Shown: positions 1,964 through 19,816 of the stretch, one piece after another | Numbering within the stretch: position 1 is the stretch's first letter | Layout of the letters: each line of letters starts with the position of its first letter | IMG/VR virus record: IMGVR_UViG_3300036778_000027 | Coordinates: 1-26,890 of that record | DNA: 26,890 nucleotides | Strand: one strand, 5' to 3' | From: a virus | Taxonomy: Duplodnaviria; Caudoviricetes | Translations under genes and position numbers: made by a program | Notes under the pieces: model-generated | Database searches by the model: none | The model's input: the letters and a program-made list of their open reading frames with translations, nothing else | Told to the model about the DNA's origin: nothing

Positions 1964-3775
1964 ATGTCTGGGACCAACGTCACCGCTATGCCGTCGCGCG
2001 AGGCCGAGAAGCCGTTGCGCGAAGTCACGCGCTTCGCCGACCTCATGACCAACGCCGAATTCAAGCGCCGCCTGACCGAGTGCGTGCCCAAGGTACTGAC
2101 CGCGGACCAGATGCTGCGCTCGCTCAATCAGGCCCTGCGATCGTCGCCGAACCTCGCCAAGTGCGACGTGCTGGACGTGGCCGGCAAGGTGTTCATCTGC
2201 GCCCAGGCCGGGCTGGCCATCAACACGCCCCTTGGCCACGCCTATCTCGTGCCGTTCCAGAACAGCGTCCGCGATCCTGTCACCCGGCAGTGGGGCAAGA
2301 AATGGGTGTGTCAGGTCATATTCGGCTACCACGGACTGCTCGACCTCAGCTTCCGCAGTGGCTTGGTCGGCGCGGTATCGGCGCGGCAGGTCTGGGAGGA
2401 GGAGGTTAACGCCGGCCAGTTCTCATTCGAATACGGCACCGGCCGCCACCTGAAACACCGGCCGATGGGCCGTCCGCACAACGAGACGCCCGAGGCACAG
2501 GCTGCCGGCACGGATGACAAGCCGGTATGGGTCTGGGCGCACGCCACCATGACGGAGCGGCTTGGCGACGCGTTCGAGGTGCTGCCATGGGGCGAGGTTG
2601 AACAGGCCCGCAACCGCATCCCGGCCTATCAGTTCGCACTGTCGATGCTGGCCGACGCGCAATCCAAGGGAGAGAAACTCCCCAAGGGATACACGGAGGC
2701 GCCTTGGGTCCGGAACCGCCAGCAAATGGCGTGCAAAACCGCGTTCCGGCGCCTCAGCAACTGGCTTCCGAAATCCATCGAACTGGCGTCCGTGCTGGCC
2801 GTGGACGCGAAGCAGGACCGCGCGCCGATCGACATGGGGCCGATCATCGACAGCACGGACTACATCGCCGCCGCTGCCGACGCGGCAGAGGAGAGCGGCG
2901 ACCCTGGCGCGGCCTATGGCGTGCGCGACAACCAGGAGAGCACCGAGACCACCACGGAGGACAAGAAGCCGCCCCGGCAGACGCGGCAGACGCGCGCACA
3001 GAGTCCACAGCCGACGCCGACCCCGACGCCCACACCAACGCCCACGCCGACCCCCACCGCCACGAAATTCGATCACGTGCTGGTGGACCACGACGGAGAG
3101 ATCATCGAAGACACTTTCGGCACGCCCCTGTCGTTCGCCGAGGCGATTGCGCTCGCGTGGAACGAGGCTTTCCCGGCCGACCGCGGCGCGCTGCTGGAGA
3201 ACAACGCAGAGGCGATCGAGGCTGCCATGCAGGCATCGGCGCCAGCCGCCAACGTGCTGCGACCCATCATGCAGGACGAGGGAGCAGCTAACGAGACTCC
3301 AACGAGCACCGCGCCGGCGCTGATCACGCCGACCATGATCCGGGACAAGGCATCGTGGCCGCAGTACGTGCGCGACATGGATGCGGCGATCTACCAACTC
3401 ACGCCAGGGAATTTCGTGGACTGGTGCGCGGTGCAGGAGCCGCAGATCATCAAAGCGCCGCCGTCCACCCGAATGAAGATCATGGCATCGCTGGCCCGGC
3501 GCGCCGAGCAGATCGGCATGCAGCCCCCGGTGTTCGGCACCAATCAGGCGGCGGCAGAGGAGACGAAGGAGGAGACCGATAAGGACCAGAAAACTGCGGA
3601 CGAATTCTGCGCCCACATGGACACGATCCAGGAAATCCACGCGCTCCGGCAATTCGTGCAGGGTGGTACCGTGTCCGTGCTTATGCGCCGCTGGGAGCAG
3701 GACCGGCCCGAACTGTTCAGGCAGGTCAACGAGCACTTTGCCGCCACCGAAGCCAGCTTGAGAATGGGCGCGTGA
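1964..3775 (+). CDS. recT: RecT-family ssDNA annealing protein with about 300 aa C-terminal extension
   Basis: LGHAYLVPF, CQVIFGYHGLLDLSFRSG, PW...QMACKTAFRRLSNWLPKSIE are RecT family motifs. Confidence 0.9.
   Translation: MSGTNVTAMPSREAEKPLREVTRFADLMTNAEFKRRLTECVPKVLTADQMLRSLNQALRSSPNLAKCDVLDVAGKVFICAQAGLAINTPLGHAYLVPFQNSVRDPVTRQWGKKWVCQVIFGYHGLLDLSFRSGLVGAVSARQVWEEEVNAGQFSFEYGTGRHLKHRPMGRPHNETPEAQAAGTDDKPVWVWAHATMTERLGDAFEVLPWGEVEQARNRIPAYQFALSMLADAQSKGEKLPKGYTEAPWVRNRQQMACKTAFRRLSNWLPKSIELASVLAVDAKQDRAPIDMGPIIDSTDYIAAAADAAEESGDPGAAYGVRDNQESTETTTEDKKPPRQTRQTRAQSPQPTPTPTPTPTPTPTPTATKFDHVLVDHDGEIIEDTFGTPLSFAEAIALAWNEAFPADRGALLENNAEAIEAAMQASAPAANVLRPIMQDEGAANETPTSTAPALITPTMIRDKASWPQYVRDMDAAIYQLTPGNFVDWCAVQEPQIIKAPPSTRMKIMASLARRAEQIGMQPPVFGTNQAAAEETKEETDKDQKTADEFCAHMDTIQEIHALRQFVQGGTVSVLMRRWEQDRPELFRQVNEHFAATEASLRMGA
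3011..3058 (+). repeat. (Pro-Thr)8 linker in RecT
   Basis: ccgacg ccgacc ccgacg cccaca ccaacg cccacg ccgacc cccacc; the codons are diversified. Confidence 0.9.
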
Positions 3776-15707: not shown

Positions 15708-16069
15708 GGCCCGAAGAAGAAGCCAATGCCGAAGGCGGTTTCGAAGGAGCAGCCCGGGATGTTGACCGGCGCCGGCGGGACAGGAGCAGAACCGCCGGAC
15801 AGGGCAGCGATTTGCGCCTCGATCGTGGCGATTTCGTTGTTGATCGTGTTGATTTCAGCCTGGATCGTCGAAACATCCGCCACGATGGTGTTCACCACCG
15901 TGATGACCGTGCCGATGTTCGTGGTGTTGGCTTGCTGCGCGCCGGAGATGCGGCTGGCCCACTGGTAGAACTCCATCGACGGCCGGCCGCTGTCGATATC
16001 GACGATGGGCCGATCGCCGTAGGGGATCGTGGTGCGAGGGACAGAGGCAGGGTCGATCGTGCCGCTCAT
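15704..16069 (-). CDS. Tail needle/plug-like protein (gp26 position)
   Basis: PIVDIDSGRPSMEFYQW N-motif, then an Ile/Val heptad coiled coil (IVADVSTIQAEINTINNEIATIEAQIAAL); directly follows the gp10-like gene. Confidence 0.65.
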   Translation of the reverse strand: MSGTIDPASVPRTTIPYGDRPIVDIDSGRPSMEFYQWASRISGAQQANTTNIGTVITVVNTIVADVSTIQAEINTINNEIATIEAQIAALSGGSAPVPPAPVNIPGCSFETAFGIGFFFGP

Positions 16070-16070
16070 C

Positions 16071-17252
16071 TCAGTTCGTGCCCTCCTCGGTGTCCAGGTA
16101 GAACCCTACGATGTTGCGGCGCACCGGGTCTGTGATTTCGAGCTTGAGCATGCGGGTGCGCGCCTGTCCCAGCTTGAGCCATCGCACGCGCTGCTGATAC
16201 TCGCCCTCCCGGCCGAGCGACCGAGGCTTTACCAGGGTGGAGAAGGTCCGGCCGCCGTCGAATGACTGCGACAGCCAGATGGTGGGATCGACGCCCTGCG
16301 GGTCGTTCGGGTCCGCGATGCCCGGGGTGAAATTGTCCGAGCACGTCGGACGACTGCCCGCATCGTCCAGGCTGCCCGCCAGGGTGAAGGTGCCCCCGCC
16401 ACCGCGGTTGAACGCGAACAGGTCAGGATTGGCGCCATCGGCCCGGCTGAAAAACACGTCGGGCACGCGATTGAACGGCAGGCTGCCGTTGCTTCCCAGG
16501 TAGGGCGTGGAGATATCGGCGCCGACGAACTTGCGACGGTTGGCTGCATCGGTCAGGTCAACGAACGACGGCGTGGCCGAGAACCACAGGTCTCCCACGC
16601 GCCCGTGCGCCTCTGCTGGCCCTTCCGGCCGGAACGCCACGCAGACCGTCTGGCCGGCGTTCAGCGTCGCGAAGTTAGCCGCCAGATTGTTGCCCTCGGT
16701 GCCTGCCTGGACGAGGCGCGGGGGAGCGGTGCCAATGTTGCCCCCGACGATCGTGCCGCCAGCAGGACCGCCGCCCACCTTCAGCCCGAAATTCGAGAAG
16801 GCGGTAGGGGCGCCCGGATTGCTGGGATAGTCGATCGCGACGCCGCAGGTCACATGGTTGCTGGTGAGGCCCTGCACAGTCAGCAGCGCCTCGAAGTAGA
16901 AGAACCCTGTCGTGTAGCCGTCCGCGGCCCGCGCCAGCCCCTGCACGCTGGTGGCGCCATAGTGCAGGTTGCCACCAGAGACCGAGGCACCGGCCCCCTG
17001 CACCGTCGCGGGGTCCAGGGTCGTGAAGCCGCCGCCGGCCGCTGGACAGCCAGAGGCGCCCGCAGGAACCGTGAAGCCGAATGGCGTGGCGCCGAAGTTA
17101 AGCGTCCAGCCGCACGTCCCAGGACCGCCCACGGTCGGATACATGACCTGCCCGGCCGTGCCAGCCAGCGTCATGCCGCCGACGCCCGTGGCGGGATTGG
17201 CCGAGGCATCCCCGTTCCAGAAGCCGCCGTCTACGCGCGTCCAAAGCGGCAT
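16071..17252 (-). CDS. Tail hub part B: permuted SPRY-like domain, C-part of ConA-like domain, and gp10-like C-terminus
   Basis: GGAGG 9 nt before the ATG; ends DPTIWLSQSFDGGRTFS...SLGREGEYQQRVRWLKLGQARTRMLKLEITDPV, the canonical gp10-family C-terminus. Confidence 0.8.
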   Translation of the reverse strand: MPLWTRVDGGFWNGDASANPATGVGGMTLAGTAGQVMYPTVGGPGTCGWTLNFGATPFGFTVPAGASGCPAAGGGFTTLDPATVQGAGASVSGGNLHYGATSVQGLARAADGYTTGFFYFEALLTVQGLTSNHVTCGVAIDYPSNPGAPTAFSNFGLKVGGGPAGGTIVGGNIGTAPPRLVQAGTEGNNLAANFATLNAGQTVCVAFRPEGPAEAHGRVGDLWFSATPSFVDLTDAANRRKFVGADISTPYLGSNGSLPFNRVPDVFFSRADGANPDLFAFNRGGGGTFTLAGSLDDAGSRPTCSDNFTPGIADPNDPQGVDPTIWLSQSFDGGRTFSTLVKPRSLGREGEYQQRVRWLKLGQARTRMLKLEITDPVRRNIVGFYLDTEEGTN

Positions 17253-17253
17253 G

Positions 17254-18945
17254 TCACCCGACCTCCGGCGTGAGGTGCCAGGGATGGCCGCCCAGGTTGG
17301 CGATCGGGTTGCTGCTGGACCACGTTTCCACGTCCGGCGTGACCACCACGTCGTTCAGGCAAAGCTGGATCACCTGATTCGCCGTGTCGATCGACAGCAT
17401 CACGGAGACCCACCCGGACCAAGCGCTGGTGTCGTACTGCAGGAGCACCACGGCAGCGTTCGAGGCGTCCCAGCCACGCACCTCGATTTGCGGCGTGGCC
17501 GTGTCATCGTTGGACACGCGCACGAACAGGCCAGGGTTGTGCGAGCCGAGCGTGTTGTCGTCCTGGTTTGACCAGATAAGCGATTGCGGATCGCCGCCAT
17601 CTGGCAGGAACACCCAAAACGACAGCAGCATCGTGGTCATGTCGGCAGGAGCCGTGCTCAGTTCGCCGGCGCTGGAGATCGCGTCAGCACCCGCCATCTC
17701 GATCGGGTTAGCGCAGTAGCTCACATCGACGCCGCCGATCGCACCGGGCAGACCGACGCCCGATTCCACCTCGATTTCGAAGCGGTTCAGGAACACCCGC
17801 TTCCGGTCACTGTGGATAGGCGGCCCCACCAGCATGCCGCGCATGGGTTGGCCGAAATCCACATAGCTGTTGACGTTGAGCTGATCGACGCGGCCCGAGA
17901 GGCTGTCCCCGATCAGGATGCGATCGTAGGCATAGATCGCGCAGTTGCCGCGGTAGCGGCCGATCGACGCATCGGCGCTGGAGCCGTCCCAGCTTTCGCG
18001 CTCGTGCCAGCGCTTGGTTGCCAGGTCCAGCACCCACGTCGCGTGCCCCGAGGGGAACGTGAGCGTCACCATCTTGTGGCCGAAGACCGTGTAAACCATG
18101 GCCTTACAATCGGTCATGGTCGGATAGCGCTGCCAGATTTGCTCGACCGCGTGATTGCTCATCCGCTCTGGCACGAAGCCAGAGAGCCGATAAAACATGC
18201 CATCGTCGCCGAGAAAGAAGACCGTGTTGTCTTCGAGCACCGTGGCATAGGGCGCGATCAGCCCGCGCTGGACGATCGCACCATCGGAGCGCTGGAACGG
18301 GAAGGTCGGAGGCGCGTTGCCAGCGTCATACCAGACCTCAGTTCGCCGCTCGCCGAACAGGTAGAGTTGCTCGTGCGTGTTGACGATCGTCAGCAGGTTG
18401 TCGCTGGTGGCCTCCTTCGTCGCTGACAGCAACGGATCGAACGGGATGATTGCGTTCTGCGGCGACAGGTAGAACTCGCGTGTGCCCCGCTTGCCGAAGC
18501 AGAAATACGTGTCGAAGAAGGTGACGGAAAACGAGGGGAAGAAATTCGGATCGACTATCTGCTGGACGCCCGAATCCTGCGACCAGTACCAGCCGACCTG
18601 CCCATCCACCCAGACGATCTGGATGCCGTTGTTATCGACCGAGATGCCGGACGTGGAAACGTTGGCCGTGCCCAGGTTGATCGTGCCGCCGTCCGGGTTG
18701 ATCTGCCAGAAGGCGTCCGCCGTGATCCCGTAAAGCTGGCCGTCCAGGATGTTGAAGCCCATCACTGGGCTGCTGCCGAGCGTGCAGAATGGCGAGGAGC
18801 CAGGGCAGCCCCACACCGGCACCGGGGTGGACGATTTCGCGTCCTGCACCTCGATTTCGGCGAACATGTTCACAGCGCGGCTGGAGTTTGCCGGCTTCGA
18901 ATAGGACTGATAGCTCTGGGCGATCCAATCGAGCACTTGCGGCAT
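17254..18945 (-). CDS. Tail hub part A: P22 gp10-like packaged DNA stabilization protein (N-terminal about 400 aa) plus N-part of ConA-like domain
   Basis: SYQSYS..SRAVNMF, DNNGIQIVWVDG, VTFFDTYF, LFGERRTEVWYDAG..FPFQRSDG, TWVLDLATKRWHER, FEIEVESGVG. Confidence 0.9.
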   Translation of the reverse strand: MPQVLDWIAQSYQSYSKPANSSRAVNMFAEIEVQDAKSSTPVPVWGCPGSSPFCTLGSSPVMGFNILDGQLYGITADAFWQINPDGGTINLGTANVSTSGISVDNNGIQIVWVDGQVGWYWSQDSGVQQIVDPNFFPSFSVTFFDTYFCFGKRGTREFYLSPQNAIIPFDPLLSATKEATSDNLLTIVNTHEQLYLFGERRTEVWYDAGNAPPTFPFQRSDGAIVQRGLIAPYATVLEDNTVFFLGDDGMFYRLSGFVPERMSNHAVEQIWQRYPTMTDCKAMVYTVFGHKMVTLTFPSGHATWVLDLATKRWHERESWDGSSADASIGRYRGNCAIYAYDRILIGDSLSGRVDQLNVNSYVDFGQPMRGMLVGPPIHSDRKRVFLNRFEIEVESGVGLPGAIGGVDVSYCANPIEMAGADAISSAGELSTAPADMTTMLLSFWVFLPDGGDPQSLIWSNQDDNTLGSHNPGLFVRVSNDDTATPQIEVRGWDASNAAVVLLQYDTSAWSGWVSVMLSIDTANQVIQLCLNDVVVTPDVETWSSSNPIANLGGHPWHLTPEVG

Positions 18946-18979
18946 GATGGTCCGCCTATATCACGAGGAGACACGACGC

Positions 18980-19282
18980 ATGGACGAAGCGACGCTGGAG
19001 AAAGAGATCATCGGCCGCGGACTGACCGCACCGCGCCTGACACCCGACCACATCGACAGCGTGATCGACGTGGCGCATTACCACGTGATCGACGGGACCA
19101 CCTGCACCGTGTGCGCGCTTGTTCTGGTCAATGGCTTCGTGGTGATCGGCAAAAGCGCTGCCGCGAGCATTGAGAACTTCGACAAGGAGCTTGGCCAGCG
19201 GATCGCGTTCGACGATGCGCGCCGGCAGATTTGGGCACTGGAGGGATACCTGCTTCGCGAAAAGCTGGCGCAAGGCGCCTAG
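18980..19282 (+). CDS. Phage Gp49-family protein (N4 gp49/Sf6 gp66-like)
   Basis: GAGGAG RBS; APRLTPDHID, TVCALVLVNGFVVIGKSAAASIENFDKELGQRIA...IWALEGYLLREKL. Confidence 0.9.
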   Translation: MDEATLEKEIIGRGLTAPRLTPDHIDSVIDVAHYHVIDGTTCTVCALVLVNGFVVIGKSAAASIENFDKELGQRIAFDDARRQIWALEGYLLREKLAQGA

Positions 19283-19816
19283 ATGGCGGAGCGCTGGCGC
19301 GCTGCACACGGCTTCCCGGCTTACGAGGTGTCCAACCTCGGCCGGGTGCGCCGGGCCGCACGCGAGGGAACCAAGCGCCACCTCCCGGCCAAGATCATGA
19401 GGCCGGCCGGCAGACACTACCTGCACCTGGACCTCCGAGACACAGCAGGAATCAAGCGCACCGTCGATGTGCACCGGTTGGTTCTTGAAGCATTCCGCGG
19501 CCCACGGCCGCCCGGGCGCGTCAGCAACCACCGAGACGGCAATAAGAAGAACAATCGAGTGGGCAATCTGGAATGGATCACGCGATCCGGGAATGCCCAG
19601 CATGCGCTTCAAGTGCTGGGTTTCCAGCCCCGCCACGGCGATGAACACCCACACGTGCGCCACAGCGATGCGGATGTTGCCAAGGCCCGAGAGATGCGCC
19701 GCCAGGGCGCGCTGATACGCGAGATCGCTGAACGCTTTGGAACCAGCACCGGTTGGGCAAGTGACGTTGTGAACCACCGGTCGCGTCGCGGCGCTCAGTC
19801 GCGGGCCGAAGGGTAA
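19283..19816 (+). CDS. NUMOD4-HNH homing endonuclease with C-terminal HTH
   Basis: WRAAHGFPAYEVSNLGRVR (NUMOD4); VHRLVLEAF...NHRDGNKKNNRVGNLEWITRSGNAQHA (HNH); IREIAERFGTS (HTH). Confidence 0.92.
   Translation: MAERWRAAHGFPAYEVSNLGRVRRAAREGTKRHLPAKIMRPAGRHYLHLDLRDTAGIKRTVDVHRLVLEAFRGPRPPGRVSNHRDGNKKNNRVGNLEWITRSGNAQHALQVLGFQPRHGDEHPHVRHSDADVAKAREMRRQGALIREIAERFGTSTGWASDVVNHRSRRGAQSRAEG

Follow-up and report, generated by a model that had tools for sequence, protein, structure and literature searches.

The stretch of DNA analysed here is IMG/VR record IMGVR_UViG_3300036778_000027, positions 1 to 26,890, from an uncultured, short-tailed phage of the Caudoviricetes. We refer to the whole 26,890-nucleotide stretch as the window. 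A tail hub of the P22 gp10 type is regarded as a conserved structural component made of one chain. The window encodes such a hub on the minus strand in two adjacent open reading frames (ORFs), A and B. This locus raised the question of whether the break is an evolved division of the hub and what the second chain contributes. We consider it very probable that two neighbouring genes encode a gp10-type hub here, that the break between them falls within an inserted LamG domain, that the chains combine, as predicted, one to one in each subunit of the hub ring, and that chain B likely carries an exchangeable head for host binding.

ORF A (17254..18945, minus strand, 563 residues) encodes hub chain A, with the gp10-type body and the N-terminal half of the LamG domain. 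ORF B (16071..17252, minus strand, 393 residues) encodes hub chain B, with a variable head, the C-terminal half of the LamG domain and the hub C-terminus. Residues 9-399 of ORF A matched positions 10-400 of the PHROG 578 (head closure Hc3) profile with an E value of 4.5e-74, and residues 322-391 of ORF B matched positions 404-472 with an E value of 5.6e-7. Since the match of A ended at 400 and that of B started at 404, the two pieces adjoined on the profile. The first-pass annotation of this DNA had proposed that gp10 homology stops at the motif EVESGVGLPG and continues about 1.4 kb later at the end of the next ORF. Both positions were recovered: the motif was A392-401 (17772-17743), and the continuation began with VDPTIW at B321 (16292), with about 1.45 kb between them. 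Homology of A to the profile ended there, and the C-terminus of B did align to it.

The hub body, A1-401 (17743..18945, minus strand), consists of N-terminal platform strands and a beta-propeller, domain names that were inferred via the Sf6 and Pa223 papers. It was also matched among PDB sequences by 9vyg_M (E 3.9e-13) and 7eeq_1 (E 6e-10). Close homologues of ORF A carry PF11134, and the Pfam search itself gave no match for A (at an E cut-off of 0.01), for B or for parts of either. The C-terminal piece of the hub, B319-393 (16074..16298, minus strand), was matched by structure comparison to residues 327-438 of the Pam1 hub 7eeq (Z 4.5, 31% identity). Both hub pieces were found in a single open frame, mostly of about 470 residues, in 39 of 47 related viral loci. 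In the other eight, the C-terminal piece was undetected (seven loci) or the contig ended (one locus), and it was in another frame in none. The window system shares with the P22 gp10-type hub (Hc3 / PF11134) the homology of the propeller body, the C-terminal platform segment, here in ORF B, and the gene position, with the capsid and Ad3 adaptor genes upstream and a DNA ejection gene downstream. It was classed as a variant because two ORFs stand where that hub has a single polypeptide.

The sequence between the two hub pieces holds a ConA/LamG-type, pentraxin-like domain. Its N-terminal half lies in A at about residues 404-563 (17257..17736, minus strand) and was assigned with our own hidden Markov model (HMM) and the model of P0083, a natural single-chain homologue. 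The C-terminal half is B215-308 (16329..16610, minus strand), which had HMM matches and contacted A409-562 in the predicted complex. Our HMMs of the two halves matched consecutive stretches of protein P0117 (497-618 and 638-718), of which residues 493-646 are Pfam Laminin_G_3 (E 1.7e-28). The corresponding stretch of P0083 was modelled with a predicted local distance difference test score (pLDDT) of 75. The P0083 model matched pentraxin and laminin-G structures, the best being serum amyloid P (Z 13.8, root-mean-square deviation (rmsd) 3.1, 190 residues aligned). The Foldseek matches were for the most part jelly-roll domains from the binding fragments of neurotoxins, with identities of about 10%, which we read as a shared fold only. 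Neither half found a match in 50,697 GenBank phage records. These results suggested that the two halves together form a ConA-like LamG/pentraxin jelly-roll, with pairing predicted across the chains. Binding of carbohydrate or calcium by this domain is putative, as the fold alone shows no function.

The first-pass annotation had described the insert as ConA/LamG-like with its halves in A and B. That part stood, and a further domain that it had missed was found in B1-212 (16617..17252, minus strand). This head is SPRY/B30.2-like. Its atlas features gave 0.96 to SPRY clusters, and in the VIA structure comparison the head model (residues 76-212) matched the TRIM67 PRYSPRY domain (Z 8.5, rmsd 2.6, 114 residues aligned). 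The top 29 VIA rows were all of the SPRY, PRYSPRY or NEUZ type. The SPRY halves were in reverse order (C-half B1-72, N-half B73-208) compared with the free SPRY proteins P0181, P0177 and P0120 and with the insert of the fused protein P0142, so the head appears circularly permuted. When B was folded alone, the SPRY core was confident and B215-308 was poorly defined, mostly with a pLDDT under 55. With Foldseek, nothing matched the B model at E 0.001. A PDB sequence search paired B with auracyanin (E 0.007), a match that we discarded because of its low complexity. SPRY-containing genes were also seen upstream of the hub gene in relatives (L050:79-1314, L056:1-534, L059:3372-4172 and L061:3252-3884), and these could be donors of SPRY heads.

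Prediction of the A+B complex was performed with controls. The pair scored 0.87 and the best of three controls 0.00; this score supports the interlock and does not show binding, because split-gene halves tend to pass by likeness to solved single-chain hubs. In the calibration, 116 of 157 solved complexes and 2 of 215 mismatched pairs scored as high as this mark. The A+B runs shared at least 90% of contacts, with a partner pLDDT of at least 73. Two interfaces were predicted. In the LamG interface, A409-562 faced B213-307, with the best pairs at A440-444 and B222-224. In the platform interface, A21-46 and A361-401 faced B318-393. The SPRY head (B1-212) touched neither completed fold and was not in the interface. 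These predictions indicated that B215-308 may complete the LamG sandwich, and B319-393 the platform domain, across the chains. The idea that both folds are completed in trans had been raised from the sequence, and it agrees with this controlled prediction and with the phage A1002 precedent discussed below.

Single cysteines border the insert, where the first-pass annotation had located them. These are Cys A411 (17713..17715, minus strand) and Cys B304 (16341..16343, minus strand), from totals of seven cysteines in A and five in B. Across the systems compared, both border cysteines were present in eight, as in all three second B copies, and both were absent in nine, with a mismatch in 0 of 17. 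P0083 did not align in this comparison. The co-variation suggested that Cys A411 and Cys B304 are likely disulfide partners.

We then considered the break itself. The gene junction (17250..17266, minus strand) holds a Shine-Dalgarno-like GGAGG (17266-17262), the TGA stop of A (17256-17254), one base, and the ATG of B at 17252, 9 nt past GGAGG. This is the layout that had been described in the first-pass annotation, where it was taken as a sign of an evolved split. One objection would be that a single gene is broken here, either by an indel from sequencing or assembly or by a recent mutation that inactivates it. Coverage was low, with a contig depth of about 7. A Logan contig (soil-metagenome run X1) covered 16000-17346, junction included, with 0 differences at a depth of 6.85; it is a reassembly and the only run found, may stem from the same sample as the window, and so is no independent evidence. 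The relatives, given here by locus (L) and protein (P) numbers, spoke against such an error. The DNA was read for 12 distinct loci whose hub bears the N-half of LamG (the window, L048-L056, L094 and L099; L095-96 are copies of L094, L100 of L099, and L101 repeats L056). The gene was split after the same strand in 11 of the 12, that is, in the window and 10 other distinct loci, and it was fused in L049, a Gluconacetobacter prophage. Identity in the insert among the split loci went down to about 30%. In L048, the junction was again TGA-C-ATG, and its B gene ran off the contig. P0004, 91% identical in the insert, has the same final residues as A. The start Met of B is also that of P0012, which shares 89% identity with B. 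The two proteins presumably come from one contig of 13,748 bases, which a metagenome scan did not return. In addition, the GC content at third codon positions was 0.82-0.87 throughout all parts of both ORFs, and the Logan contig showed no indel that would restore one ORF. An error or a recent mutation is therefore an extremely improbable explanation.

A programmed +1 ribosomal frameshift at the junction would give one fused hub protein, with free A as a by-product. The window has features that suit it: GGAGG lies 2 nt before a GGG codon, which is followed by the TGA stop and C, and the frame of B is +1 relative to A and open for 12 codons upstream of the B ATG. We take this arrangement to resemble the release-factor-2 shift site. 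Fused relatives also exist. However, the signal was not conserved. Ten loci have a B gene that can be read. The offset between the two frames was +1 in four of them and -1 in six, the stop was TGA or TAA, and the last codons differed. The B start lay +1, -1, -4 or +8 from the A stop, so that a start codon was within -4 to +8 of the stop at every junction. The following gene junction in the window has the identical stop, one nucleotide and ATG layout. Second B genes, where present, come after a complete B gene and are unreachable by a shift from A. Stop read-through was rejected, since in-frame junctions were found in 0 of the 10 loci. Low-level +1 shifting may occur in the window phage, and frameshifting as the way in which the hub is made is very unlikely. 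The same break point with varying offsets, stops and gaps argues against both a sequencing error and a conserved frameshift. These results supported, at the level of sequence comparison, a break that evolved rather than an indel artefact.

If the two genes are the functional state, the coupled stop-start translation would give matched amounts of A and B. In Sf6, N- and C-terminal parts together make up the apical domain of the hub, which docks on the adaptor (PMC9728967), and Pa223 has the same hub layout, with a fibre-binding loop at 354-387 (10.1101/2025.06.11.659172). As the platform docks the hub on the adaptor, chain B likely supplies an essential piece of the hub, and anything fused in front of that piece would be carried onto the tail. 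A disulfide between Cys A411 and Cys B304 would staple the stalk. From the hexamer, six LamG-SPRY arms would reach outward to bind the cell surface.

The variation of chain B was consistent with an exchangeable head. In 181 stored proteins, 124 ended in the hub C-terminal piece without a hub body, a number that is no unbiased frequency because the set was gathered largely with B as the query. Of these, 112 began with Met and 96 had the LamG C-half. Twelve single-chain hubs and four A-like proteins were also stored. Fused, split and insert-free homologues, which had been suggested as a search, were all found. The heads were a permuted SPRY, a second LamG, cadherin-like, immunoglobulin (Ig) and fibronectin type III (FN3) domains, and several without an assigned fold, while the anchor stayed conserved. 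A further class of proteins joins SPRY to the hub C-terminal piece and lacks LamG (P0106, P0116 and others). Headless natural B chains of 177-194 residues were also present. Tandem second B genes were found in four loci (L050:7180-7764, L054:4868-6511, L055:7102-7638 and L066:6242-7357), and those of L055 (178 residues) and L050 (194 residues) had no real head. L051, L052, L094 and L099 have the same split LamG at another place in the hub, a second site that lies about 55 residues closer to its N-terminus. The hub was split without a LamG split in L057-L063, L066, L075 and L091. Further large insertions were seen near hub residues 55-120, a third permissive site (L017:2216-5126, L037:3998-6478, P0005 and P0006).

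A hub-core tree of 67 rows was midpoint-rooted. The fused LamG forms branched at the base of a supported 13-row clade. Nested within it was a supported 9-row clade that included the window, with eight split rows and one fused row. The rows split at the second site formed a separate clade with one fused row. Approximately unbiased (AU) tests were performed on 49 of the 67 rows, after long branches and near copies were dropped. A single clade for the LamG-split rows at both sites was rejected (12 vs 37 rows, p 8e-55) and one for all split rows was borderline (18 vs 31, p 0.047), values that neither count origins nor tell repeated fission from re-fusion, since re-fusions also break monophyly. The simplest reading is insertion, nested insertion, fission and occasional re-fusion. 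A LamG domain would have been inserted into a hub loop, and a second domain into the LamG. Gene fission at the nested-insert loop would then have freed the N-terminus, so that heads of any shape could be exchanged and B could be duplicated. Some lineages may have fused again.

Split nozzles have been described before. In the Pseudomonas podophage A1002, the nozzle consists of the nozzle-base gp42 and the nozzle-rope gp39, which were joined by beta-strand complementation in a cryo-electron microscopy structure and were described as unique (PMC13730344). The likeness is close: the base has 398 residues, the C-terminus of the second chain gives the missing platform strands, and its N-terminus bears an accessory arm. 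However, gp39 contributes two incomplete blades of the propeller as well, and its arm is a rope of 300 A that includes an Ig-like domain and docks fibres. This rope was not matched in the window, where the N-terminal part of B is a compact SPRY fold. LamG and lectin are unmentioned in the accessible text of that paper. In contrast to A1002, the window has its break inside an inserted LamG, so that two folds are shared between the chains; its genes are stop-start coupled, and the heads vary and duplicate across the family. A1002 was not among the matches listed in our phage-genome searches.

In the Pseudoalteromonas phage phiRIO-1, tubular tail protein B is made of gp44 and gp40, which gave separate bands on virion gels, and such splits were called uncommon (PMC4819975). 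The nozzle homologue is likewise split into two polypeptides. It differs in that its two genes are separated by others, and no inserted binding domain is described in the text available. The window shares with the A1002 and phiRIO-1 type the N- and C-parts in separate genes, and its platform complementation is a prediction only. The P22 gp10, Sf6 gp8 and Pam1 hubs resemble the window in homology over the body and C-terminus and in a gene position between adaptor and ejection genes. They differ as single chains of about 470 residues without LamG or SPRY. The accessible text of the Ar-KM preprint yielded no split nozzle.

Two further systems were found in genome records. In the cultured Xylella phage Xfas53 (GQ421471, 27411-29554; L123), the hub body was gp36 (14-390, E 2.6e-76) and the C-terminal piece was gp37 (72 residues, E 1.5e-23). 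As in the window, the pieces are in two genes, here with a 4-nt overlap; unlike the window, an arm of about 250 residues is on chain A and is not LamG. This split hub is unannotated as such, and gp37 is labelled conserved phage protein only. In ACI52198 (P0001, L049) from the Gluconacetobacter diazotrophicus prophage, the order of parts is that of the window: hub, LamG N-half, nested insert, LamG C-half, hub C-terminus. This protein differs in being one chain of 1209 residues with another nested insert and no border cysteines. No publication was found on a P22-type hub split inside LamG or on duplicated second chains, in a literature search at the level of listings that took in few subscription journals. 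The split nozzle itself is already described, and the split inside a LamG domain is a new variant.

Several points weigh against this reading of the locus. Neither LamG half nor the SPRY part alone reaches a Pfam match, and the co-variation of the border cysteines rests on few independent changes. The complex test tends to be passed by split-gene halves through their likeness to single-chain hubs like 7eeq, and our own alignments were used in it, so the calibration holds only roughly. P0004 and P0012 are known as proteins, and their adjacency is presumed from the equal length of their contigs. Some of the 124 B-like proteins may be gene fragments, and the root of the hub tree is a midpoint only. 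Fibre-like genes (744, 304 and 295 residues) are present in the window as well, and these could be the real receptor binders.

These genes also suit the main alternative to host-surface binding, which concerns function only. It accepts two chains but has the LamG-SPRY arm serve fibres or other components of the tail, as a dock or a spacer, and we regard it as possible though doubtful. The N-terminal part of the second A1002 chain docks fibre dimers (PMC13730344), and a Pa223 hub loop near the same region anchors fibres (10.1101/2025.06.11.659172). Headless B chains exist as well. The SPRY structures matched by the B head are, we presume, largely protein-binding domains, which also counts for docking. 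However, the heads swap among unrelated folds (SPRY, second LamG, cadherin-like, Ig and FN3) on a conserved anchor. Exchange of unrelated heads on a conserved anchor is typical of host-facing modules. Judging from the folds and the variability, we think that binding of the host surface by the LamG-SPRY arm is reasonably likely.

Among uncultured P22-like phages such splits are frequent. They fall at no fewer than two hub loops and tie a probably essential piece to exchangeable surface domains. Routine annotation would report chain A as a truncated hub and chain B as hypothetical. A more speculative extension, which we put forward tentatively, is that repeated fission made the essential hub segment a plug-in anchor. 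Whatever domain precedes the LamG C-half and hub C-terminus would then be forced onto the virion six times and locked by the disulfide across the chains, and phages with two B genes could build mosaic hubs or mixed virions with different heads. If this were true, host range would diversify via the conserved hub, not via fibres or spikes. The natural split jelly-roll with a headless partner of 178 residues is a clean complementation system, and parts of the idea are open to testing in Xfas53, which is in culture, and in the Gluconacetobacter prophage.

On the minus strand of the window, the genes for capsid, adaptor, hub, ejection proteins and fibres follow a P22-like order. The head-tail adaptor (21474-19795, minus strand, 559 residues) resembles two tandem-fused adaptor copies (phrog_12985 in three stretches, Ad3), and L050 has an equivalent of 557 residues. 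Dual adaptors, each with a gene of its own, have been noted in GP4 and Bcep22-like phages. Between adaptor and hub, on the opposite strand (18944-19816, plus strand), are a Phage_gp49_66 gene and a NUMOD4-HNH gene. L050 has an HNH-like gene, identified by eye, at the same place and on the opposite strand (3115-3639). The 744-residue fibre-like protein (24129-21895, minus strand) is Gly/Thr-rich and repetitive and had no family match. A GNAT acetyltransferase gene (14365-13904, minus strand) lies between the tail and ejection genes, and the early region contains a RecT-family gene of 603 residues (1964-3775, plus strand).

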